Assembly: GCA_010093995.1 (NCBI GenBank)
Contig: ML992508.1
Coordinates: forward strand, 1,078,548-1,098,547
Direction of reading: 5' to 3'
DNA: 20,000 nt
Source: Elsinoe ampelina
Taxonomy: Eukaryota
Position 1 is the stretch's first letter. Every line of letters starts with the position of its first letter. The position numbers were made by a program, and so were the translations under genes. Shown one piece after another: positions 5,351 to 20,000 of the stretch. Under the pieces are notes generated by a model, which was not told the DNA's origin, did no database searches, and saw only the letters and a program-made list of their open reading frames with translations.

Positions 5351-6896
5351 CTAAGAAATCATCCTCGTCATATCCCCCCGGATCCTCGCATAATCCAACA
5401 ACCCCTCAATCTGCCCCACCGCCGAGATGGCAATGTCACGATCCCACAACTTCCTCTGGGCAAAATCCTGCACGTCCTTCGCCGAGATGGCACCGACCAC
5501 ACGCTCCACCTCCTCTGGGCTGAGGCGGCGGCCTGTCGTGATGGTTTGGCGGCCAATGTCCTCTGCCACGGCAGTGGTGCCGTCGAGGGAGAGCAGTAGC
5601 GAGGCCTTGAGTTGGGACTTGGCGCGCTCGACTTCGGAGTCGTTGACGGCGAAGGAGAGGCGGGACCACTCGCGGAGGGTGAAGTGGACGAGGTCGTCGA
5701 TGCGGGTGATGGCGTCGGTGACGAGGTAGATGCCCCAGAGACTGAGAGAGGGTTAGCAAAGTCACAAAGGGGGGAAGGAAAGAGGGGTCTTACCCGGTGT
5801 CGCTGTAGCTGGTGGAGAAGCTCATGAAGCTGTTGGCGAGCTTGTTCTCGTGGACGAAAGTGCTGAGCTTGCTGCCGAGATAAGGGGAGTTGCCCATGGC
5901 GCGGTCCCAGTTGCCGACGATGGCCTGGGCAACCAGAGCGGTGAAGTAGTCGTCGTCCTTCCATGAGACACCCTCAACTGCAATGGCGATGTTGGCGGTT
6001 GGGATGGTGTCGTCTCGGATACGGACTTCGGAGCCGACAAAGTCGGGCTTTGCCTTCTGAGCGGCGGCGATGGCTGCCTCGGTCGACGTTGGTGGTTGGT
6101 TGGGGACCTTGCCGAAGTACTTCTCTGCGAGCTGTACGAGCTGTTCGTGAGGAATGCCACCAGCACCGACCAGTACCATGCGGTCAGCAGTGTAGTTGGT
6201 CTTGATGTAGCTGGTCAAATCATCACGGGAGATGGACTGGATGTTCTCCTTGGGTCCAAGGATGGTGCGGCCGAGGGGCTGGTCCATGAAGGCAGTTGCG
6301 TGAAGGTGGTCAAAGACAACCTCCTCGAGCTGCTTGTCGACCTCCTCCTGCTCGCGGAGGATGACATCACGCTCGCGCTCGATGGCAGAGCCCTCGAGCT
6401 TGGAGTTTTGTAGAATATCGGCCAGGATGTCGACAGTGTTGGGAACATCAGAGTTGAAGGACTTGGCATAGTAGACGGTGTTCTCGCGGGAGGTGTAGGC
6501 GTTCAGGTGTCCGCCCATGTTCTCAATCTCAAGCTCCAATTGTGACTGCGACCTCTTTTGCGTTCCCTTGAAGGCCAAGTGCTCCAGAAAGTGCGCGGTG
6601 CCGTTTGTTCGGTCTGTTTCCGCACGGCTTCCAGCATCAATCCAAACACCTACAGTCGAGGTTTGCGCATAAGGTGAGTATTCGGAGGCAATCTACATCT
6701 CCATCAGCCATTGATACCACTATCCAGCATTTCGATGTCCTACCGTAAAGCCATTGCTCAACGTTGTGCTCTCCGTCTTCACTCCATGACTGACCGGAGT
6801 CGCAAGGCCCCTGGTCACCGGCGATCTGATGGCATTGAGAGCGAGTCGGTTGCGAGTAGAATTCCTCAGATTGAGGGCTAGCCGCCGGGAGGCCAT
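5351..6896 (-). CDS. MAS1: Mitochondrial processing peptidase beta subunit (M16 family), 480 aa, 3 exons
   Basis: Exons 6896-6744, 6692-5794, 5741-5351. Arg-rich, acid-free presequence MASRRLALNLRNSTRNRLALNAIRSP. TVGVWIDAGSRAETDRTNGTAHFLEHLAFKGT carries the inverted Zn motif HFLEH, followed by EIENMGGHLNAYTSRENTVYYAK. Confidence 0.96.
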
Positions 6897-7157
6897 GGCG
6901 ACAAGTTCTGAGGATAATGGTGGTTGAATAGCTGCTTGGAACAGAAATTGTGAGCGACGCCGGCGAGATTGACGATTTGCAGCAACAAGAAAGCTCGCTC
7001 TTTGGTCTTGGCAAATCGTTGTCCTTCTCGCGGCTCTTTCCGATCCGATCACGTCCAATCCCGAGGCTCGCATTACCCTCTTTGGAGACATCAGTTGCTC
7101 TGGCATGTCAACTGCACCTCTACCTCTCCACGACCTGCCGCTCCATCATCCTCGACA
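6897..7157. promoter_or_regulatory. Compact divergent (bidirectional) promoter region between MAS1 and SDH4
   Basis: Only 261 nt separate the two head-to-head ATGs (6896 on -, 7158 on +), so both promoters and 5' UTRs must lie here. Confidence 0.7.
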
Positions 7158-7871
7158 ATGGCATCAGCAATGCGCTCCTCCGCCTTTCGCCAGGCCTTCC
7201 TGGCTCAGCCCAGCAAATTCACAGCTCCTCTGCGCACCTCGTCGCGGTTATCCCAGCTCGCAACACCCGCATTCGCACGAGTAGCTGCTTTCCACGCCTC
7301 CCCTCGCCGCTCCATCCTGCCTCCTCTCCCACGTAAGCGGCCCCCATCAGTTGCTCCGCGGCCCTCGCCTGCTCGTTCTCGATCGCCACCACTAGCAATG
7401 CGTGCCTAACCTTGCCTCCCAGAGAAAATCATCGGCACAGTCAACGACCCGGCCCCTGTGCCCCCTGTGTCCCCCCAACATGGCAGCTACCACTGGACGA
7501 TGGAGCGCCTCATCTCGGCCGCGATTGTGCCCTTGACTGTGGCCCCCTTCGCGGCGGGGTCGCTCAACCCGGTGCTCGACTCGGTCTTTATTGCGACTAT
7601 CCTTGTGCACTCGCATATTGGTTTCCAGTACGTACATGAGGAGCCAGGATATATGATATTATATACAGGATGCTGGTGGGAGAGATGCAGTGCTAACGAC
7701 AATAGGTCCATCATCATCGACTACGTCCCGACGAAGCGGATGCCAAATGTAAGGAAGCTGTTCTGGTGGGCATTGAACCTAGCGACTGTAGTAGTGGGAA
7801 TTGGCTTCTACGAGTTTGAAACAAACGACGTAGGGTTGACAGAGGGCATCAAGAGGGTATGGAAGGCTTAG
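7158..7871 (+). CDS. SDH4: Succinate dehydrogenase small membrane-anchor subunit (SdhD/CybS), 181 aa, 3 exons
   Basis: Exons 7158-7332, 7423-7627, 7706-7871. Mitochondrial presequence, then ILPPLPQKIIGTVNDPAPVPPVSPQHGSYHWTMER...LVHSHIGFQSIIIDYVP...GFYEFETNDVGLTEGIKRVWKA, the CybS signatures including the heme His and quinone-site DY. Confidence 0.95.
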
Positions 7872-8092
7872 AGGGAGTGCTGTGGGTGTGTTATCTGTAT
7901 CATGGAGCGAGACACCAGCAGAAAGAGACAGAAATGTTTGTAGTACAAATTTTAGAAACATGAATTCGTCTGTCGTGGGTATTCCTTTCCCTTTCCCTTT
8001 CCCATTTGTCCAAAGGTACGTGACGCCTTGCTGAAAGTATTTTCATCTCGCCGTACCCATTTGCACTTGCGCCGTGCACCAGGTCTGGAGTC

Positions 8093-9962
8093 CTAAAACC
8101 AATAATCCTTCCCTGCCTCTGTGATATCAAATCGGCATCCCAACCTTATGCCTTTCTGCGCTAGAGCAGCTGTGTGGTCGTTCAATTGCTGCAGAATGAC
8201 CTCGCTAATGTGGGGGCCATCCTTCATCGTGTCTTTGACGTGCATAACTAGTACCCTCAGACCTTTGAGGGGAGGGTCCTGGTTGACCGGAGTGCTCACT
8301 GTGTTCGGCTGAGCACTGTTTATTTGACTTACCCCTTCGCTGAAACTCGTCTGGATCGGGATGGGTTTGTAACGGACGTAATCAGACCCCTGTCCTTCTG
8401 TTGCCGGCACGCTGGTGACCTGCGGCGTGGACCTCGGACTTGGAGTGTCTTGCAAGACGTCGTCAGGGACGCTACTCCGCCGGCCATATTGCAGTCCAAT
8501 GTTCCTCCCCACTAGACTGCGACTGCGCTTCTTGTCGAGGTAGTGCTCGGCATCTTGTGCGCCAGACAGACCATTCATTCTCTTCCGCTTGCGCATGGCT
8601 TTCTCGTTGGCACGTATAGCGCGCTCTTCTTTGACCATTTCGGCAAGGACCTGTAGCTCGGCGATCAAGTGACGGGGGGCTAAGTGTCCAAAGAGCACAG
8701 CATCGGCCTGAGTGTCAGCATAAGAGCACTCGACGAATATGCCCGTGAGGACGCCGGCGGCAATCTTTGGGGCCGCCTCGGCCCAGACACGGGCTGTTCG
8801 AGGAGCTACGGATATGCTGTCCGGCTCGACATCGCCGAACATGAGGATCTCGCGGTGAGAGGAGAGGTCGCGAATGAAGTAGGCGGTAGAGTCTACAGCG
8901 TGCATGTTAGGGTCTTGCTGGTATGGGTGCGACGTGATGGGTTGTGGCGGAGATGCATAAGATCCTGGCGTGCCGGGCATGTGGAGGTGCGAGAGTGACA
9001 TGTGTCGTTCTGTTGCTGTGTTGGAGGTGTAGTGTTTTGGCGTGCTCGCGTAGCCATTCGGGACATCCGACAGATTGGAGATTGAGCCTCGATGCGATTC
9101 GGTTGTGCCTGGTCGCATGCATTTGCCATGGGAGATCTTGAAGGCTTTGGTGGAAAGCCCTTCACAGACTTCGATATATCCTCGTCCTTCCCCTTCGCCT
9201 ACCATCACATCGCCCCCTTCCTTGAGACGCTGGAACGTCACGAACCCTACTCCACCATCTTCGTCGGTCAAATTGGGCCAAATGACATCGTTGAAAATGT
9301 GCCGTTTGATTGCATCTACTGTGAATGGAAGTGCTGCGAGGGTCTTTGGCCGTGAGGTGGCGTGGAAAGCCGCAGTATTGATTGCGAAGCCGGACAGATG
9401 ATCAAGATGTGGATGGCTAATCAGATACGCAGCGACATGACTCCTAACAATGTGCGCTGCATTGGCTCTTGCGGAAGCATGAGGCAGCGGAACTCCGGCA
9501 AAGGGTCCATTCTCGAGCACGATTGGCTCTAGCTTGGGTGGTGGAGGCGGTCTGGAGAGCGGCGATGATGGAGGTGAAGAATTTGGCCCCACCGGGTTCT
9601 GCGGCGACAATGGCTGATTATGGAAGAGGTTACCATCCGAGTCGGCCCGTATTTGGTCTCGCGATATAGCAGGGAGATGTTGTTCCAGGATTCTTGTGAT
9701 GGCGGCAAGATGGGTACCTGCATCCACTGCAAGTATTGAACCTCGTACCCAGCCAGATGCCGTCGACCGTACTAAGAAACCGCTGACATTGTCTTCGCTT
9801 GGACCACCTCCGGAGCCCTGTAGGTGTCAGCTCCTGGTACGCATAGCTTTGGCGAAGGAGCCTGCGAAGTGTACTTACCAGACAAATCACCTGTATCGCT
9901 GCATGGTGGCTGTGTTCCGATGCACCGTAGCTGACGGGAGTTGGCAGGTCCTGAGAGGTCAT
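8093..9962 (-). CDS. PDE1: Low-affinity class II 3',5'-cyclic nucleotide phosphodiesterase, ~602 aa, 2 exons
   Basis: Exons 9962-9879 and 9817-8093. Intron 9878-9818 is gtaagt..gctgac..cag. Motifs: IQVICLGSGGGPSEDNVSGFLV, LAVDAG, YLISHPHLDHLSG (HxHxDH), HIFNDVIWPNL, FGDVEPDS, IFVECSY...LFGHLAP. Confidence 0.94.
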
Positions 9963-10492
9963 GGAGCCTCCGGGCAGGTCCAATGCCTTGAAATGCGATC
10001 GTGTCTCTCGATCCTTGTCCCGTCTCTTTGCGCCTAGCGGTATGTCCTCGTTTGTTTCCTCGACCAATGTTTCCTTGACGTCGGTCCGAGCGTTGCTGGG
10101 TCAAATGCGTCTGATTCAGGTGTCGTTTGCGGATTTGCAGGTAATCCGCGCTGGAGGATTGAACGTCCAGGTTGCGCTACAAGCTGTCTGTTCCTGCTAT
10201 GAAAGGCGGTACAGGACAAAGTCGTGAATCATCAATGATGGATGAAAGAAAGAAAGAGAAGGACAGTTGAAAGGCAAACATGCATAAAATTAAGCTACCG
10301 CTGCAACAGTAGGTGGTTGTTGTACACGGACGCAGTAAAATAAAGTAGCTTCCTCTTGCCTGCAGCTATGTCTCAGGCCTAGATCCCAGGATCGGTAACG
10401 GGTGGGATGCTGTTGTAGCTGGCAAATCGGATCGAGAGACGTGTGTTTTATTCAGAGAATTACAATAACCGATTTATCTACTGTACGTGCGC

Positions 10493-10499
10493 TGACTCA
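10493..10499. promoter_or_regulatory. TGACTCA (Gcn4/CpcA/AP-1-type bZIP consensus) upstream of PDE1 at the edge of the RIP block
   Basis: Exact TGACTCA in gcTGACTCAt, about 530 nt upstream of the PDE1 ATG. A single heptamer can occur by chance. Confidence 0.25.
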
Positions 10500-10920
10500 T
10501 CAGTACCAGTTCTTTAGTACTAGAGAAGCTGTACTAGCCTTCTATTATAACACTCCCCCTCTAGTATAGATTGTTAAAGCTAGAGAACTATCCTATTATA
10601 TATAAGTAAAGTAATTAGGTTATTACTTTATCTCTTTATAATTACTTATAATTGTTAGTGCTAGCTAATCACTAGTAAGAATTTACTATTAGATTAGCTT
10701 ATAACAGCTAGTAGCAATAGTAACTATTAATAATAGCTAGGTAGCTATTATCTCTATTGTTCTATGTAAATAGATTAGCTTATAAATCTTAATAAGGGAG
10801 ATATAAGTATCTAGCTAACTTCTTTATAGTTTCTCTTTCCTTTATTATACTTATAATAATAGCTTACTATTTTATATTCTACTTTTATACCTTCTATAGT
10901 ATAAACTAACTCTTTACACT

Positions 10921-12092
10921 ATAAGTGCTACTACTTAGCTAGGTATTAGTAGTATTACTACTAGTGCTAGAGTACTAGGTAGTCCGCTAGGTAGTAGAGG
11001 TAGAGGACGTAATTTTCCTTAGTCTAGAGATTTAACTAGTTCTAAAATAAAAGAGTAGAGTACTATAAGGGCTATTGCTAGACTAAATACTCTTAGTATA
11101 TTATCCCTTATATAGTCTAAAAAGTAGTCCTAACTTATTATAGTTAGGACTAAATAGGCTCTTACTTAGGAGCTTACTATAAGCATTTAGAACGACCTTA
11201 CTAGGCTTAGGGACCTTAGATACTATAACTATAACTCGCTATACTTAGTCTTTAAGTCCTTTACTATTTAGGCTTTTAGTGCTAGTAACCTAGATCTTTT
11301 AGTCTTAGCTTCTATCTAGGTAAAGAACCTAACTAAGACAATTAACTTAACTAGTTCTCTAACTTATATAGCTACCTTAATAGGAACTAGTGCTACTAGA
11401 AGGGTTATTTACTATAGTACTAACTACTATACTAAGTATTAGAGCTCTACTCTAAGTAATAATAATAGCCTTAGTAGAGCTAGTAAGTTTAAGTAGTATA
11501 TTATAGTCTCTAGCTAGTTCTATAGTACCTATACTAACTATACCTATAGTCTATAGTATAAGACTTACTCTCTTATCTAGTATACTCTAACCCTAAGGCC
11601 TCTAAAGGAAACTCTAAGTAGTTTAAGGCCTATTACCTAATCTATTCTATATAGCCTAATACATTTACTAACTAAGCTTTTAAGGTCTTTCTCTTTTAGT
11701 AGTACTTTGCCTTAAAGGTTCTTACTAAGGCCTACTTCTTCTTATAGTAGGCCTACTAATGTTATTAATAAGTCCTTAGTCTATCCTAACTTACGCTACT
11801 TTATTATAGTCTCTATAGACTTTATTAATCTAGTAAATCCTATATAGGCTAAGCTCTAGGCCCTATAGGTTATTATAGCTAGGTTTACTATAAGTATAGC
11901 TAAGATTATATCTAGTAAGAGAGCTAGCCTTCTAATTATTTACACCTTTACTATATAAGGTTTAGCTAGCGGTATAGGTTATATAAGAAATATATCTAGT
12001 TCTTCCCTAAGAAACGAAAGGTTAAAGGCTAACTCTAATACATTAATAGGTAGTAGATCTTATACTAGCTCTAAGAGCTTTAAGAGGATAAG
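10921..12092 (+). pseudogene. RIP-degenerate ORF of unknown identity, apparently interrupted by the LTR element
   Basis: Frame 1 from ATA(ATG?) at 10921 de-RIPs to plausible protein (MSATTQPGIGG...GGPPGGGGGGRNFPQ...) whose stops are TAG/TAA. It appears to resume in frame after the 3' LTR at ~19391. No recognisable domain. Confidence 0.35.
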
Positions 12093-12290
12093 TGTAAGAA
12101 CTAACGTAGTAAGTATACTACGCTAGCTTATCTTAGAGATACTATTCCCCGTAGGAGAATAAAATACTCTTCGCTTATATAATAGATAGAGTAGAGATTA
12201 GTTTTACGATAATTAAAAGTATACTAGTATAACACCTATTCTACTTCTATATACTTGTCTTTCTAGCTTTAATATTCTACCTTCGTTATA
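12093..12290 (+). repeat. 5' LTR (198 bp)
   Basis: Starts TGTAAG and ends TTATA (TTACA after reversing RIP). Aligns without gaps to 19188-19385 with 18 mismatches by manual count. Confidence 0.95.
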
Positions 12291-12293
12291 ATT

Positions 12294-12302
12294 CTAATCT
12301 CT
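12294..12302 (+). other. Candidate self-priming primer-binding site
   Basis: CTAATCTCT, 3 nt after the 5' LTR, is the exact reverse complement of AGAGATTAG inside the LTR (12193-12201; also 19288-19296). No TGG-type tRNA PBS is evident. Confidence 0.65.
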
Positions 12303-12336
12303 CTTATATTCTATCGAATAGAGCTATATAGATAAG

Positions 12337-15300
12337 ATAGTACCCCGTACTTAGCGCTAGCGAAACGACTAACTACCGCTAGAGTAGTACTAGTATAGAT
12401 AACTCCCTAATAGCTTAGCTATTAGCGAGACATTTACTAAATTAGCTATAACTCTAGAGATAACTTCTATTAAAGATCGCTAGGCTAGGGAAGGGCTAGC
12501 GCTAAGGCTACACCGCGCTAATATAGCTCCTATAGGAAGTATAGCTAACACAGGAAATAATACTATATATAAAGCGCTTTATACTTATATCGCTTAGCTC
12601 GAGAATATACTTAGTAGTCGCTCCCTAGTTATAGCGCTAGTACTACGTAGTTGTTTCGACGACGTATAACCCGACGATATTTGCCTAATAAACCTATAAA
12701 TTGCAAGAGAGTATATACTAAACTTACGCTACCCCGAGGCCTTAGAGTTTACTATTATAGTAAGAGTTAAGGAATTTATACGTATGTATAATAATGTCTT
12801 TAAGATAGTGCCGAATATCTACTTTAAAGAAGTTACTTAGTGCTATATAGCTACTAGCTACTTAAAAGGTTAGCTTAGCTATAATTAGGACTCGTATACT
12901 AAGAGCGCTAGCGTTATACCCTTATAGAGCCTAATATAGTTCTAGCTTTAGAACTAAGCCTAGAGTTCTAAAAACTATAGTAATAGCTACGTAGTAAAGT
13001 TCTTTACGTCGCGCTAGCGTAGAGAATAGTCGATTACTAATTTCTATATGTTCCTCGATAGTTACGAGTTCTATATTAAGATAGTACTACTTCTAGACGA
13101 CGTCTACTATATATAGCTTATCGCCTATACTACGCTAGAGCTACGCTCGGAAGTACTCTATTAGGGGAACCTATCCCTAATTAAGGTAGAACTTCTAGTA
13201 TATCTATCCTGTTTAGAGTAGAACCTACTAGGCTACTTTAACTCTATATAGGGGTAGTATAAGTATAACGCTAGAGAGAAGACTAATACTTTTGCTAAAA
13301 GACCTTACTATAACGAAGACTATAAGAGCTAAAAGGACTAGTAGAGTAGCGCTAATACTACCCCTATAGCTCCTCGACCTAGCGCTACTTACTCTTATAA
13401 TATCTATAAGAGCCTAGACTATTAGGCGCCGAACTGTCCCTAGAAGGACTCTTTAAAACGGATAGTGTCCTTACGTTTACTAATCCTAAGCGGCTCTAGC
13501 GTAATATAGAGTATATACCAAATTCGCGCCGATATTATAGTTAACCTACCTAAAGGCCCTATCGAAGAGGTAGCTCTAATAGATAGTAGCGCTAATAGTA
13601 ACTTTATTAGCTAGTATTTTACTATACGCTATTATATCGCTATCGACCCCCTAGTAGTATACTAAGTATATAGCTTAGATAAACACGAATTAACTACCTA
13701 CGGATATACTAAGTTAGCCTTTACTATTAAGAATAGTAAAGGAATAACGTAGGCGTCGCGCTAGTAGTTTAAAAGCGTTAATATAACTAGTTATAATCTT
13801 GTATTAGGCCTACTATAGCTATTGTCCTACGACTCTAAGATTTAGTAGAGCGCTAGTATATAGAGGCATTATACTAGTACTATATAGGTGTCGATTCTAG
13901 ATATACTCTCCTTCTCCTAGGAGCTAAATTAGCCTAACGCCTAGCTCTACCTAGTATATATATACTAGGACAAACCTAGCGTTCCGACTCTACTATACTA
14001 GCTTAATAACTACGTAGACGTTTTTAATAAGAGTATAGCAACAGCGCTACTAGGTAACGATTTTACTTACTCTATCGATATTAAAGAGAGGAAATATCTA
14101 CTCTAGGGACCTATCTACTCCCTCGGTAAGAAGGAGCTCTAGGTACTTTAAGAGTATATAGACGACAGCTTAGTAACGAGTCGACTCTAGTATAGCACTA
14201 GCTCTACGGAGTCTCCTATCCTATTCGTTCCTAAGAAGAATAGTTCGCTACGCCTATATATTAACTATTGTAGGCTAAATAATATTACTATTAAGAACTA
14301 TTACCCCTTACCCCTAATTACTAAGATACTTAATTATATTAAGAGCGTATGCTTATTTAGTAAGCTAGACCTTATAGATACCTACTATAGGGTATATATC
14401 TAGCGTAGTAATAAATAGAAGATAGTGTTCCGCTATTACTATAGCTACTTCGAATATACTATTATATCTTTTAGCCTTACTAACGCTCTAGCTACGTTCT
14501 AGACTTATATACATTAGTACTTAAGTAGCTTAGTAGACTACTACTATATTATATACCTAGACGATATTCTAATCTACGCCGGCGACAAGTAAGAGTATTA
14601 CTAGGCTATTAGGAGCGTACTAGACTACCTATGTAAGAATAGCCTCTATATAAAACTAAAGAAGTATATCTTTAAGGTAATATAGGTAGTATTTCTAAGC
14701 TATATTATTAGTAGTAATAGCGTCGTAATAGAGTAGCCCTAGGTATAAGCTATTACTAACTAGCCTACCCCTACTAGCCTTAAGGAGTTATAAACCTTTC
14801 TTAGATTTACTAATTTTTACTATCGATTTATTAAGAGCTTCTCCTACGTAGCGCTACTACTAACTATACTTATGTAAGAGTTAGTCTAAGAGAAGTAAGT
14901 AGGCCTATTTCTATAGAGTAACGACGTAGTATAGGCCTTCGATAGGCTTAAAGCTACCTTTACATAAGCGCCTATACTACACTACTTTTTATTAGGTAAG
15001 CCTCTCTAGCTCGAGACTAACGCTTTAGATTTTGTACTCTCTAGAGTAATCTTCTAGTAAAATAAAGGCGACACTCCTACGTAATACTAGTACCCTATAG
15101 CGTTCTAGTTCTAGAAGCTATAAGATATAGAACTAAACTACACTACCTACGATAAAGAGCTTCTCGCTATTATAGAAGTAGCGTAGTACTAGCGCTAGTA
15201 CCTACTTAGCGCTACTACTCTAATTAAAGTCCTCTCTAACTATAATAACCTTAGGTACTTCCTAACTACTAAGAAGCTTTTATAGCGCTAGGCCCGCTAC

Positions 15301-17466
15301 GCTAAGGTACTAGCGTAGTTCGATATTATTATTTAGTACTATAGTAGGAAGACTAACCTAGCTAATAGCCTATTACGTAGGCCTAACTACTATAAGTATA
15401 AAGAAGATATATAGGAAGAGCGCTATATATTAGTCCCTCTCTTAGAGTAAGCGTTATAAATACGAAGTAAAGGAGTTATACCTATATCTATTATAGATAA
15501 GAAACCTAAGGCTAGGAGGGCCTAGAAAGATAGTAATAAAGCTAGTATAGCTTATATACCTTAAACTACTCCTTAACGTAACGCGCTTATATAATTCTAG
15601 TATACTTCTAGAATAGCGCCTATAAGTCTACCTATTACCTTAGAAGCGCTATAGCTATACTAAAAAGAGTTAGAGTCTCTAGAGTAAGAAGAGTAGCGCC
15701 TAAAGGACACTTACGTAGACTCTCCTCTAAGCCTAACTAGTAACGTCGAATCGGAATAATATACGCCCGCTCTAGTATCCTAGGACGTTCTACTACTCGT
15801 ATAAGAGACGCTAGAGAGCTAAGGGCAAGAAGAAAGCGTAACGCCTACGTAACTCTAGGATACTCTTAGTAGAGAGCCTACTATAATTTTAGACTAGAGT
15901 TAGTAGATTATATATCTCTACGCTACGTAAGTACTAGTAAATAAGACTATATATACTTCTTCTACTCCTACGTTACTCTAGGACCTTATCTACGTAGTAT
16001 AGTAAAGGGACACCTTTACTTATAGTAAGGAATAGAAACTTCTAAAAGAGAAGACCTTAACTAGTAATAGTACTACCCTAGAGTAGAGCCTATCTAGTAA
16101 TAGCTTACTCCGTAACAGGAGTAGAGTATATATCCTAGAAGAAGCTACCTTAAGAGTAGAGCTTATATAGTATAACTATAACAACCCCTTAGAAGGTTAC
16201 TTTAGCTATATAAAGACCTACCTTAATATAAGGAGGAAGTACTAGTAGCTAGGTATATCCGTTGCTATAAAAGCGTATATTAAGCGCTACGATAGCTACT
16301 AAAGGTATAAGGTAATATAGTATAAGCCTTATAGTCTCCTATAACCCTTACTAATTCCGCCTATACTTAAGGCCTTATAATACTAGTCGCTTAATTTTAT
16401 TACTAGCTTACCCCTAGTAGAGCTCTAGCCTAGCGTCGTTATAGACGTAATTATCGTATATATCTATCGCTTATCTAAGTTTAGTATCTATACGCCGACG
16501 TTAACTAAGCTTAATACTAGGGACTTTACTAATCTATTTAAAATAGACATTATAACGTTATTCGGAACGCTAAAGACGCTAGTCTTAGATAGAGAGTCTA
16601 TCTTTATAAGCAAATTCTAGAGTACGCTATACTAGCGCTAGAAGGCGTAATATAAGCTTAGTACTAGTTTCTACCTATAGATAGACAGCTAAACTAAAAG
16701 GTAAAACTAGACGCTAGAGTAGTACCTACGCTACTTTATCGACTATTACTAGACGGACTAGCTATACTAGGTTAAGTAGGCGTAATTCGTGCATAATAAT
16801 ACGTATTAAGCGTTACTATACGCTACGCTAGCGTAGTTCTTATTTACGTAGGAGATACGCCTATCTAATAATATTAAGGCGCTAGCGCCGCCTAGCTATA
16901 CGCTAGCGTATAACTCGTTAGTTGACAACTAAGTATAATCTATTACTAAAACGTATATAGAGCTCGCCTAACACCTACGTAAAGTATAGAAAGACTAAGC
17001 GCTAGCCTATAATAGAGGTTAATAAGTAAAAGTCTTCTATAATAGCGACAAGGTTATACTTAGTACTAAGAACCTTCGTAGCGCTAGACCTAGCTATAAG
17101 CTATTAGCTAAGTATATTAGCCCGTTTATAATTGTATAACGAATTAGTACGTAGGCGTATAAGCTATACTTACTAGATAAAATAAAGCTAATCTATAACG
17201 TCTTTAACGTTGCGCTACTAGAGCTATATAGGCGTAGTAAGGGCATACGCCTACCGCCCCTAGAGGTAGAAGGGTAGGAAGAATACATTATTAAACGCAT
17301 CCTTAGTAAGAGCTATACTAGCACCCTAAAGGCGCTATACTACCTAGTAAAGTAGTAGGGTTACCCTATAGAAGAAAGTATATAAGAGCTAGTAAAAAAC
17401 CTTATAAACGCTAAGGAATTACTATATAAATATAAGGTAGCTTAGCATAAGTATAGCGCTAGCTAA
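12337..17466 (+). pseudogene. RIP-inactivated gag-pol polyprotein in one continuous frame (~1710 codons)
   Basis: De-RIPed frame-1 motifs: zinc knuckle CNICKSPDHWAPNC (13396-13437); protease ALIDSGANSNFIS (~13573-13611) and DLVLGLPWL; RT LFVPKKDGSLRLC, YPLP, MPFGLTNAPATFQ and an intact YLDD (14554-14565); RNase H LETDASD, YDKELLAI, ADGLSRRPD (~15010-15390); integrase HHCC (~16177-16299), SLDFITGLP, VSDRG, FHPQTDGQTERQNQTLEQYLR, GPF (~17119); chromodomain EYIIERIL...YLVKWQGYPIEESTWEPVENL (17281-17403). End position is approximate. Confidence 0.93.
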
Positions 17467-17658
17467 ATACTCTAGATATACTTAGGATTAATAAGTTAAA
17501 GGTATAAAATTTAAAGTAAAGAGTACCTAGGCGTAGCGCTAGGTTAGCTTAGAGTATTATTAGCTTACGTAGAGAGAACACTAGCGTAGTAAAAACTATA
17601 GAATTATACCGAAGTAAAGGGGGCGTAGCGTAGGCGTAGCGCCCTAGCTCTCCCTACC

Positions 17659-18529
17659 TTAACTATCTATATTATCTACCTTAGTCTTATCCTTATTATT
17701 CTCCTTAACACCGTTAATATGCCTAGTTAGCGCCCTCGTAGCATTATTAAGCGCCTACGTAGTAGCGGCTTACTTATTCTTAGTAACTACCTATAGAAAA
17801 GTTAGTATAGCTTAGGCGTTATAGAGGCGTACTTCTAGACTTATAACATTAGCTAAAGCCTTAAGTATAAAGTTAGTATTACTAATTATACCTAGGCGTA
17901 GCGCCTTTACTAGCTTCTTAGTATCGACTTTAGAGGTAGTAGGCGTAGCGATAGTACTATTATAGTGTAAAGAGGTCGTACTATTATTATTACTCTTATT
18001 AACTACCTTACCTTTACTCTTAGCGTTAGACTTACTCTATATATACTTAGCGCTAGCCTTCTTATATATATAGTTAGTATAGGTAGTAATCTAGCGCTTT
18101 AGAAGAATAATGTTCTTCTTAGGAGTAGTAGTATCGTTATAGAGTAGTATATATATAGTAAAGTATTTGTCCTAGAGCTTCTTAGTAGTAACTTAATCCT
18201 TAGAGTTAAGCTTAGTAGGCTACTAAGGTTAGTATAAAGTAGGTATAGCGTAGGTATAGAGTATACCTAGTAGTAGTGTTTATTACTATAACTATAATAA
18301 TTATAGTAGGTAGCCTTAGCCTTAGTAATCTAGTAGAGAGAATCCTTAATAGAGAGTACACTATCTTCGAGCTAGAGGTACTTATCGATAGTAATAGTGT
18401 AGTATAAGTATAGTATAGAGTACTAGTTCTAGTTAGTAAAATCGCTCTTATAAGGTCTATAAAAGGTTAGCGCTAGCGTAGTATAAGTGCTATATATAAT
18501 ACTTACTCCTTAGGAATTTTAGAGGCTAT
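17659..18529 (-). pseudogene. Spliced antisense accessory gene inside the retrotransposon (4 exons, ~239 aa), divergent Zn2Cys6-like Cys cluster plus acidic tail, RIP-inactivated
   Basis: Exons 18529-18507, 18456-18267, 18219-17845, 17790-17659. Introns 18506-18457 (gtaagt..gctaac..tag), 18266-18220 (gtatac..actaac..tag) and 17844-17791 (ataagt, RIPed gtaagt..actaac..tag) are 47-54 nt long and phase-compatible (2,0,0). Confidence 0.72.
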
Positions 18530-19171
18530 AGTTATTAAAGTACGTAAGTATATAGGAGGTAAGCTAGTATAGAGCTAGAATAATAAAGGGAAAAAAAATT
18601 ACTACGTAGGTACTATACTAGGTTAGTAAATAAATAACTAAATAGATAAGCTCGATAGCTAGATCTATAGTAGCGTAGGCTTAGTATATATACTAAGCCT
18701 CTCCTACTAGCCCTTAGGCTAGTAAGACCTAGTCTATACTATATAGTACCTAAAATAGGTTACTAGTATAGTATTAGACCTACGTAAGTATAGAGCTAGT
18801 ATTAAGTAGAATACTTACGCGAAGGAAGTATTATAAAGGAGAAAAGAAGAAGAGAAGGAGAAGAGAAGGATATATATCTAGCTCTAAGCTAAGACTAATC
18901 TAGAGAATAATAGGTAGTAGTATATAATAATAGGTAGATCCTTATATATAAAGATAATAACGTAAGAGCGCTATATTCTATATATAAAGAATCTGTGCTA
19001 TTGCTACTATATCTAGTATATAAAGAATAATACTAGCTAGTATAAGCGCGCCATACGTGCGGAGAGTACGCTACACCTAAGGGGCGCTAGCGAGATACTC
19101 TTTTCTAGTTTTCTCCTATACTAGGTTTTCTAAGTTTTATTAAGGCTTATAGGCGCAAGGGCGTGCCCCCT

Positions 19172-19183
19172 AAAGGGGGAGAA
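19172..19183 (+). other. Polypurine tract (plus-strand primer)
   Basis: AAAGGGGGAGAA ending 4 nt before the 3' LTR. It overlaps a small CCCCC-TAAA-GGGGG inverted repeat (19166-19179). Confidence 0.85.
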
Positions 19184-19187
19184 TAAT

Positions 19188-19385
19188 TATAAGAACTAAC
19201 GTAGTAAGTACGCTATACTAGCTTATCTTAGAGATACTATTCCCTATAGGAGAATAAAATACTCTTCGCTTATATAATAGATAGAGTAGAGATTAGTCTT
19301 ATAATAATCGAGAGTATACTAGTATAATACCTATTCTACTTCTATATACTTGTCTTCCTAGCTCTAATATTCTACCTTCGTTACT
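19188..19385 (+). repeat. 3' LTR (198 bp)
   Basis: Starts TATAAG (RIPed TGTAAG) and ends TTACT. Direct repeat of 12093-12290. Confidence 0.95.
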
Positions 19386-20000
19386 CTAAGGAAGTAATTA
19401 GTAGAGTATAATAAGTAGTTAGTAGTATAGAATAGTAGTTAGTATTAAGTAGTAGATGTAGCTTAGGTATAAGTAGCTAGTAATAGAGTTATAATAGCTT
19501 TTCCTTTTTCTCTTTTTAATAATAAAGTAATAGACATTACTTTAGGCTTCTAATAAATAAGATAGCTTAATAAGTAGTAGTAGCATAAATAACATACTTA
19601 AAATAATAATATATATAAAATTTAAATAAGTATATAGTATAGATATACACTAAGTAATTAGCCTTTACTAATTAATTAAGAATCTTGTTAGGAGACTTAG
19701 GCTTTATAAGTGCATTAGCTAATTACTAAGTTATATTAATATACTTAAGCTTAATTACTCTAAGTTTATACTACTCTCTATAGTAATAATTCCTTAAATT
19801 AATATACTTAGATCTCCTTAAATTAGTATAATCTCTTATAAGTTTAATAGCTAACTTATTATTAATAAAGACTATAGTTAGGCTAAGGTAAATATTAGCA
19901 AGTAGCCTAAGTTTAATAATAAGGTTTCTTAACTAATTAATCTCTCTATAGGTCTTAGTAAGGGCAAGGTATTTAGCCTTAGTACTTAATAATATAATAA

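Follow-up and report, generated by a model that had tools for sequence, protein, structure and literature searches.

The spacer between pol and the polypurine tract of a fungal chromovirus in Elsinoe ampelina probably holds an accessory gene of the element's family, lying antisense to gag-pol and inactivated by repeat-induced point mutation (RIP). The element occupies part of a 20,000-nt stretch of contig ML992508.1 (assembly GCA_010093995.1, forward-strand positions 1,078,548 to 1,098,547), which is referred to here as the window and whose coordinates are used throughout. Within the ~1.7 kb of spacer, the minus strand holds a former gene of ~0.9-1.0 kb with at least one short intron, which belongs to a multi-copy family and has counterparts in intact relatives. 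Its stop codon lies ~220-245 nt from the end of pol, the two genes being arranged tail to tail. The window copy is dead, with 11 internal stops, and its value is that of a marker of the family's original layout. An earlier note on this DNA had proposed a minus-strand gene of four exons and three introns at this place, and the former protein-coding region that it put antisense to gag-pol is upheld by a codon-usage test and by a switch of frame at the second intron.

Codon usage in the spacer

A codon log-odds model, blind to the exon proposal of the earlier note, was trained on the RIPed pol of the element by contrasting its true frame with the five wrong ones. On held-out 300-nt windows of pol it chose the correct frame and strand in 15 of 16 cases, and pol's own windows scored -1.7 to 14.0 nats. 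When the model was slid over the spacer, the minus strand was chosen throughout, with frame -2 preferred at ~17600-18250 (peak of 17.8 nats per 300 nt) and frame -0 at ~18200-18600 (peak of 12.0 nats per 300 nt). The cumulative score of frame -0 climbs from ~18680 to 18230 and then drops; that of frame -2 drops until 18230, climbs to 17660 and is flat thereafter.

With two models, each trained on half of pol, the maximal segment in frame -2 extends from 18216 or 18219 to 17667 (23.4 and 27.9 nats), and that in frame -0 from 18665 to 18263 or 18194 (14.1 and 9.6 nats). As a null, the best wrong-frame segment in the held-out half of pol reached 8.8 and 10.1 nats. The segment limits match the proposed start of exon 3 (18219), the proposed end of exon 2 (18267) and the final codon ahead of the stop. 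Exons 2, 3 and 4 score 0.16, 0.16 and 0.19 per codon, compared with 0.107 for pol; the three introns read through give -0.05, -0.02 and +0.03, and the 53 codons past the stop give -0.02. The dinucleotide TA falls on the boundary between codon positions 3 and 1 in 61 of 96 cases within 17701-18150, compared with 405 of 1001 in pol, an excess that is the outcome expected from RIP of C-ending codons before A. Since an independent codon model gives the same frames, the same switch and the same stop as the exon proposal, a former minus-strand gene is well supported, and this test is the decisive support for more than chance.

Exon-intron structure of the antisense gene

Removal of the three introns (Table 1) joins 23 + 190 + 375 + 132 = 720 nt, or 240 codons, in one frame, as the earlier note had described, and the frames and the switch at intron 2 were recovered by the codon model. 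The joined frame contains 12 stops, 11 internal ones and the terminal TAA. That all of them are TAG or TAA, which the note took as the mark of RIP, is true but uninformative, because reading through TAA and TAG leaves every frame open for 10 kb: RIP has left almost no TGA in 10500-20000 (1 on the plus strand, 2 on the minus strand). The positions, lengths, CTAAC words and TAG acceptors given for the introns also hold, with CTAAC standing 8-12 nt before TAG in each of the three; of the donors, only that of intron 1 is an intact GTAAGT. Those of introns 2 and 3 need reversal of a RIP change from TpG to TpA, which the adjoining bases allow.

Intron-like words are enriched on this strand. The strict pattern GTAAGT..CTAAC..YAG occurs once in the 1.1 kb of minus strand that holds the antisense open reading frame (ORF), compared with twice in 15.4 kb of other RIPed strands, and RIP-relaxed intron-like segments number 7 in the former and 15 in the latter. 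CTAAC itself is found 9 times on the minus strand of 17501-18500, compared with 0-5 times per 500 nt per strand elsewhere. By itself this motif evidence is weak, because part of the CTAAC excess stems from codon structure (NCT AAC) in the exons.

Intron 2 is the best supported of the three and probably real: across it neither frame codes (-0.02 and -0.10 per codon). An alternative form of 44 nt, ending at 18223, keeps the frame as well. Intron 3 lies in frame and brings no frame switch, so it is only suggested by a dip in score and by two stops; when it is read through, its 18 codons include 2 stops and average 0.03 each, compared with 0.16-0.19 in the flanking exons, and we consider the case for it evenly balanced. 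Exon 1 is too short for the codon test, so intron 1 stays a candidate that is not distinguishable from chance, and the 5' end made up of exon 1 and intron 1 as proposed is doubtful.

Table 1. Coordinates of the chromovirus and of its antisense former gene in the window
Feature	Position	Strand	Details
5' LTR (long terminal repeat)	core 12084-12288	+	205-nt direct repeat, 91% identity to 19179-19383; TG-type start TGTAAG at ~12093
gag-pol, single frame +0	12601-17430	+	many RIP stops; reverse transcriptase, RNase H, integrase zinc domain, Tf2-type SH3
Exon 4, frame -2	17659-17790	-	includes terminal TAA 17661-17659; 0.19 nats per codon over 43 codons
Intron 3 (candidate)	17791-17844	-	54 nt, in frame; ATAAGT (RIP-compatible with GTAAGT)..TACTAAC..TAG
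Exon 3, frame -2	17845-18219	-	125 codons, 4 RIP stops; 20.2 nats, 0.16 per codon
Intron 2	18220-18266	-	47 nt, phase 0; GTATAC (RIP-compatible with GTATGC)..ACTAAC..TAG
Exon 2, frame -0	18267-18456	-	63 codons, 5 RIP stops; 9.9 nats, 0.16 per codon
Intron 1 (candidate)	18457-18506	-	50 nt; GTAAGT..GCTAAC..TAG; frame -0 read-through -0.05 per codon
Exon 1 (proposed)	18507-18529	-	ATA as RIPed ATG; 7 codons, 0.98 nats; too short for codon test
Purine/CT-rich run	18836-18870		35 nt, pure purine on plus strand, CT-rich on minus strand; candidate promoter box or second (internal) polypurine tract
Polypurine tract	19172-19187	+	assigned from sequence context; directly 5' of the 3' LTR
3' LTR	core 19179-19383	+	start TATAAG at ~19188, a RIPed TGTAAG

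Copies in the source organism and in a second organism

Logan contigs of four public runs were placed on 16900-19400 at 80% likeness and counted in 30 bins. The best holder, run X1 from the source organism, gave 1826 short contigs covering 30 of 30 bins, with a summed depth mostly of ~4800-20100 in the spacer (one low bin, 990), ~5400-19400 in the pol tail and 15600-47200 in the LTR. Where X1 contigs differ from the window, 253 of the differences are transitions and 8 are transversions. Run X3, from a second organism, gave 256 contigs and likewise covered all 30 bins, and run X4 gave 2 contigs. The bin of the purine/CT-rich run at 18836-18870 is the deepest of the spacer in both organisms. Given the complete cover of the spacer in two organisms, at depths of the same order as those of the pol tail and LTR, the segment is a multi-copy part of the repeat and not a one-off insertion, in line with the earlier note's view that the family carries it.

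One X3 contig skips 17564-17692 (129 nt), which includes the stop codon of the antisense gene; a variant with a deletion at the 3' end occurs there.

Counterparts in intact relatives and a cysteine-to-tyrosine footprint

An alignment of 12 pol homologues was used to retrieve the best 80 metagenome loci (588 of 589 pattern matches being relatives) and 6 IMG/VR loci. Several of these have long spacers between pol and LTR with antisense ORFs. By pol, the window is closest to L003, L001, L014, L002, L017 and L005, and a quick maximum-likelihood tree of 82 reverse transcriptase-RNase H rows tentatively groups the window with L014, L001 and L017 (Shimodaira-Hasegawa-like approximate likelihood ratio 89), inside a larger clade with a support of 95.

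The earlier note had proposed to look in other fungal genomes for genes antisense to pol on its 3' side, and two of these nearest intact loci have one. The antisense genes that follow pol in L001 and L017 are homologous to each other (tblastn 1e-10, 6e-7 and 2e-5), are ~1.0-1.2 kb long, lie tail to tail with pol and have a Cys-rich first part. They share 26-41% identity, compared with 57-79% between the pol sequences of the two loci; the antisense gene thus changes at a much higher rate than pol, and this accounts for the failure of a RIPed member to align. Each has a short, canonical phase-0 intron two residues past the last of four shared cysteines: in L017 at 4030-3985 (46 nt, GTGAGT..TGCTAAC..CAG) and in L001 at 7265-7219 (47 nt, GTGAGC..TGCTGAC..TAG). 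The cysteines stand at -3, -11, -14 and -23 from the end of the exon.

RIP changes the Cys codons TGY to the Tyr codons TAY. A Tyr-rich cluster lies at the end of exon 2 of the window gene, and its own intron 2, of 47 nt and phase 0, is preceded by tyrosines at -3, -11, -14 and -23. Of 18866 boundaries in all six frames of 10500-20000, 8 show the same four-tyrosine pattern, and its chance, calculated from the tyrosine share of exon 2 (14 of 63), is about 0.002. The case for regarding the window gene as a RIPed member of the L001/L017-type family, with intron 2 as an ancestral intron, is good but not conclusive; such membership is supported by position, intron and Cys/Tyr register, and not by alignment. 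The window gene also differs from the two relatives. L017 has no second intron at the place of the window's intron 3, the second intron of L001 lies elsewhere, and there is no significant alignment between the window and either antisense gene.

In databases, the L017 product has only 3 relatives, all of them unnamed proteins. AlphaFold2 modelling of the L017-type C-terminal part from a 5-row alignment gave a mean predicted local distance difference test score of 48, too poor to use.

Antisense genes of other chromovirus lineages

A second type of antisense gene, named here after L027, is common to 7 of the 80 metagenome loci with 49-83% identity and always lies between pol and the polypurine tract. 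It comprises L027 8962-10018 on the minus strand and the matching parts of L055, L039, L065, L029, L067 and L042. Its ATG is conserved and stands ~130 nt from the polypurine tract. Each of the seven members has a single phase-2 intron, 45-55 nt long, that contains a GCTAA-type branch word and ends in TAG; the donor is GTAAGT in four, GTAATT in one and ATGAGT in two. The protein has a coiled-coil N-terminus followed, after splicing, by CX2CX6CX10CX2CX6C, which is the exact Zn2Cys6 spacing, and by an acidic tail. The ratio of nonsynonymous to synonymous substitution (dN/dS) was 0.10-0.21 in all 15 pairs of 6 loci (median 0.17), L067 being left out as 5'-truncated and bearing a large insertion. 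This low ratio indicates that antisense intron-bearing genes of fungal chromoviruses can be real, selected genes. The L027 type resembles the window gene in its antisense place between pol and polypurine tract and in its short GTAAGT..TAG intron. It belongs to another pol lineage, and its product has no similarity to that of the window.

The L027 product has no database name. Pfam searches of the antisense ORFs of L005, L027, L036, L001 and L017, and of P0122 and P0123, gave sub-threshold matches only; Zn_clus scored 15 bits in the related L036 ORF, the sole one scored, against a cut-off of 21. In the ESM Atlas, the L027 and L017 products gave unnamed clusters below 0.9 or no usable match.

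Further antisense ORFs between pol and the 3' end were seen in L036 (10652-11888, minus strand; 198 + 134 + 64 aa) and L005 (5905-7012, minus strand; 235 + 147 + 66 aa), and one of 198 aa lies on the minus strand of L082 downstream of 6018. These three sets are mutually unrelated, and each has Cys clusters and/or Glu/Arg-rich coiled-coil-like stretches.

A Zn2Cys6 motif was considered for the window product and rejected. The series Y-X2-Y-X6-Y at the end of exon 2 fits the first half, no second half follows within 5-12 residues, and the PF00172 pattern CX2CX6CX5-12CX2CX6-8C has no full match in the window, whether written in Tyr or in Cys.

Objections and alternative explanations

Several observations weigh against an antisense accessory gene as described. 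The codon model rests on one training gene. As the sequence stands, introns 2 and 3 have non-canonical donors, and frame -0 is mildly coding upstream of the proposed start (5.5 nats over 18665-18510), a misfit with exon 1 plus a 50-nt intron 1 that points to a rival 5' end. The tyrosine-for-cysteine match was spotted post hoc and involves four positions only. In the tree, the branch of the window is long (1.5) and its composition biased, so that its placement is unsure. There is no room for the gene in the near relatives L003 (spacer of 128 nt), L002 (~558 nt) and L014; the gene is therefore patchy in the clade. Among the listed holders of the stretch none is recorded as RNA, which is no evidence either way, and the RNA-labelled run X6 had 0 contigs placed on 16900-19400.

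Database searches with the window's product belong with these objections. A phmmer search with 17659-18219 of the minus strand (stops as X) against 1.84 billion representatives gave 0 matches at E <= 0.001, and in a word search with the same segment 0 of 105 candidates passed. The hits that the earlier note had proposed to seek by tblastn did not appear: no match to the antisense product fell below E 2 among the 80 related metagenome loci. When the window and the 80 loci were both RIP-normalized in silico (all CpA and TpG to TpA) and compared, nothing credible was found; the few matches of the antisense ORF were of low complexity and on the wrong strand. L027-type hidden Markov models, raw or RIP-normalized, gave at best a non-significant E 0.46 against the window frames, at 18090-17980 in the right frame. 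L001 and L017 gave no alignment to the window's product at E <= 10, raw or RIP-normalized, and none of the six frames of 17400-19178, stops being read through, gave a Pfam family at E <= 1. These blank searches are low in power. The gag, protease and integrase core of the RIPed copy are likewise missed by Pfam. In a control, the element's own gag matched 0 of the 80 related loci by tblastn. RIP-normalizing raised the identity of pol only from ~38 to ~43%, and gag and the antisense ORF stayed undetectable. The RIPed pol itself, used as a single query in viral contigs, gave 11 pattern matches and 0 relatives.

Three other explanations were weighed. The first is that a fragment of a host or mobile-element gene was captured once, in reverse, by the founder of the family and has since been passive cargo. 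Such transduction by LTR elements is known (available text of PMC7264820), antisense capture would keep introns too, the product has no identifying homologue, and three close relatives are without the segment. We nevertheless regard capture as unlikely. The antisense genes of L001 and L017 are homologous, occupy the same place and have their intron at the same position in elements whose pol is 57-79% identical, the window shares the Cys/Tyr register with them, and the segment is as abundant as its flanks in two organisms. Passive cargo also fits poorly with the purifying selection on the antisense gene of another lineage (dN/dS 0.10-0.21).

Chance would be a second explanation, in that RIP makes TA-rich DNA full of TAG and of CTAAC-like and GTAAGT-like words, in which a frame can always be joined. 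It accounts for the six frames that open once TAA and TAG are read through, for the 15 relaxed intron-like segments in 15.4 kb elsewhere, and for the two of three donors that need RIP reversal. It does not account for codon segments that reach 2-3 times the best wrong-frame segment of held-out pol and have their limits on the proposed exon borders, or for a TA phase bias exceeding that of pol, and is very unlikely. The third, a sense-strand pol extension or third ORF in +0 or +1 with the minus frame as its mirror image, is the least probable. In its favour, frame +0, which shares its register with -2, reaches 10.6 or 5.7 nats in its maximal segment (17650-17929), and over the 136 codons of 17663-18070 frame +1 meets just 2 stops. 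Against it, -2 beats +0 by 13-22 nats in both half-trained models, the same contrast called the strand of pol correctly in 15 of 16 windows, minus-strand splice signals stand where the frame switches (18220-18266), and the ORFs of the relatives are antisense.

The host element and its surroundings

The first half of the window has the base composition of ordinary fungal DNA (GC 0.51-0.60), and from ~10300 on the GC content is 0.28-0.38. RIP is saturated in this second half: 10500-20000 contains 1968 TA, compared with 64 CA and 57 TG, and the corresponding counts in the GC-rich half are 320, 693 and 731. In the element copy, ~94% of the CpA/TpG-type sites are now TpA.

The AT-rich half (10300 onwards) contains one LTR retrotransposon. 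Its LTR pair differs at 18 places, 17 of them by transitions, and surrounds one frame with reverse transcriptase, RNase H and integrase, so that the host element is a RIP-saturated Ty3/gypsy chromovirus. Pfam reported RVT_1 (2.4e-10), RT_RNaseH (1.8e-14) and SH3_Tf2-1 (6.2e-12) in the pol frame, with Integrase_H2C2 (0.005) below the cut-off. With stops as X, pol has 702 homologues at E <= 1e-10, the best of which are chromodomain-bearing fungal-type polyproteins with 37-41% identity. The chromodomain PF00385 is unreported in the RIPed frame at E <= 0.01 and is carried by most of the best pol homologues. The coding signal of pol stops at ~17416-17440, the maximal +0 segment of the codon model ending at 17416. 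Rfam gave 0 matches in 10000-20000.

The DNA 5' of the 5' LTR (10300-12091, plus strand) is also RIPed and AT-rich and has no Pfam match. It was considered as an inverted copy of the spacer, and blastn and tblastx gave no relation; the DNA is unrelated to the element. Its plus strand has 10 CTAAC words in 10501-12000, and within 10300-12091 it has 6 relaxed intron-like segments and three borderline coding segments (7.9-10.0 nats) in three plus frames; it may be another intron-bearing gene killed by RIP. Past the 3' LTR, the minus strand of 19390-20000 is RIPed and by eye resembles the C-terminal part of a Ty1/copia polyprotein, with no Pfam match at E <= 0.01. Two minus-strand genes of the GC-rich half, at 5790-6692 and 8093-9826, have matches to M16 peptidase (PF00675, 3e-58; PF05193, 3e-30) and class-II cAMP phosphodiesterase (PF02112, 1e-51). 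The genes of this half lie ~200 nt or more from the border of the RIPed block at ~10300.

Proposed expression and function

Before RIP, the antisense gene would have encoded a protein of ~240-320 residues with an N-terminal Cys-rich part, probably zinc-binding, followed by a basic part rich in Lys, Asn, Ser and Thr. Its pre-mRNA would have contained at least one spliceosomal intron (intron 2), perhaps three. Such introns could outlast retrotransposition, the genomic RNA being the complement of the antisense pre-mRNA: they would persist because the RNA that is reverse transcribed lacks their splice signals, so that the spliceosome never removes them. If true, this would be a concrete case of introns persisting by lying antisense to the genomic RNA.

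Transcription would require a minus-strand promoter of its own, expected within 18665-19383. CT boxes occur near fungal start sites, and the CT-rich run at 18836-18870 is a candidate. We tentatively suggest that the product may have been a nuclear nucleic-acid-binding regulator of the element's transcription or of host silencing; in addition, the antisense RNA might itself supply double-stranded RNA for silencing. The window would then hold a RIP-killed member of a family whose protein tuned one or the other.

At least two unrelated antisense, intron-bearing Cys-cluster genes occur in fungal chromoviruses, and one of them is under clear purifying selection. The gene in the window is still recognisable in a RIP-saturated copy by its codon statistics and its Cys-to-Tyr footprint. 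Conceivably, several fungal chromovirus lineages carry fast-evolving, intron-containing antisense genes for Cys-cluster nuclear proteins (zinc-finger-like, with Zn2Cys6 spacing in one lineage) under purifying selection, which would together form a layer of accessory regulators, a generalisation that we hold with limited confidence. If these proteins regulate the expression or silencing of their elements, they would have a bearing on repeat expansion in fungal genomes.

Comparison with known systems

Annotation of LTR retrotransposons is usually confined to gag and pol, and, as far as the available text of the papers cited below goes, antisense genes have been studied in a few plant families and in one fungal element (brtn of Boty). 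The premise of the earlier note that a chromovirus comprises gag and pol only is too strict, an antisense gene being in print for Boty brtn and for plant elements; its idea of an accessory gene is right, yet not new in kind. The original paper on brtn is said to be Zhao et al. 2011 (Virology 417:248).

Additional ORFs in antisense orientation, placed between pol and the 3' LTR, have been reported for maize Grande, rice RIRE2, Silene Retand and Phaseolus PvRetro13 (PMC7264820, PMC11963269, PMC4408406) and, outside plants, for Boty of Botrytis cinerea and Sclerotinia sclerotiorum, with the gene brtn (PMC7264820). In the text available, their function is given as undetermined; the Grande product is nuclear and its gene has its own promoter, antisense RNA of plant elements is discussed as a source of double-stranded RNA silencing, and an antisense promoter is reported in the 3' LTR of human T-cell leukaemia virus (HTLV) (PMC7264820). 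A Boty-like element has a CHROMO domain and brtn-106 (PMC4227169), brtn is missing from the current B05.10 annotation (PMC8365987), and a Monilinia transcript is similar to BRTN (PMC5987419). In the parts of the literature available to us, antisense genes with introns are not described elsewhere for fungal chromoviruses.

The plant genes (Grande gene23 and those of RIRE2, Retand and PvRetro13) are, from the descriptions available, like the window gene in position, in orientation, in their presence in most copies and in having no clear database homologues. They differ in that their elements belong mostly to the non-chromovirus Tat/Retand lineages and in that their proteins are different, with PMD, Tr28 or SMC-like domains in some; a relation in sequence to the window gene is not expected. 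Boty is closer: it is a Ty3/gypsy element of fungi with a chromodomain in its gag-pol (PMC4227169), and, compared by description only, it has the same layout, whereas the window copy is RIP-dead. The window's product had no match at E <= 0.001 in the phmmer library, in which NCBI proteins should be included. In the window, the coding segments 18665-18263 and 18219-17667 lie in the interval that separates pol from the polypurine tract, so that the gene has the brtn-type layout.

HBZ of HTLV-1 is a spliced antisense gene driven from the 3' LTR. It resembles the gene proposed here as an antisense, separately transcribed regulator at the 3' end of an element; it belongs to an animal retrovirus and encodes an unrelated protein, and the analogy is one of layout only. 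If fungal chromoviruses do carry a layer of antisense accessory regulators, it would be comparable to these retroviral antisense regulators and would have been largely overlooked as gene callers and repeat masking hide it.

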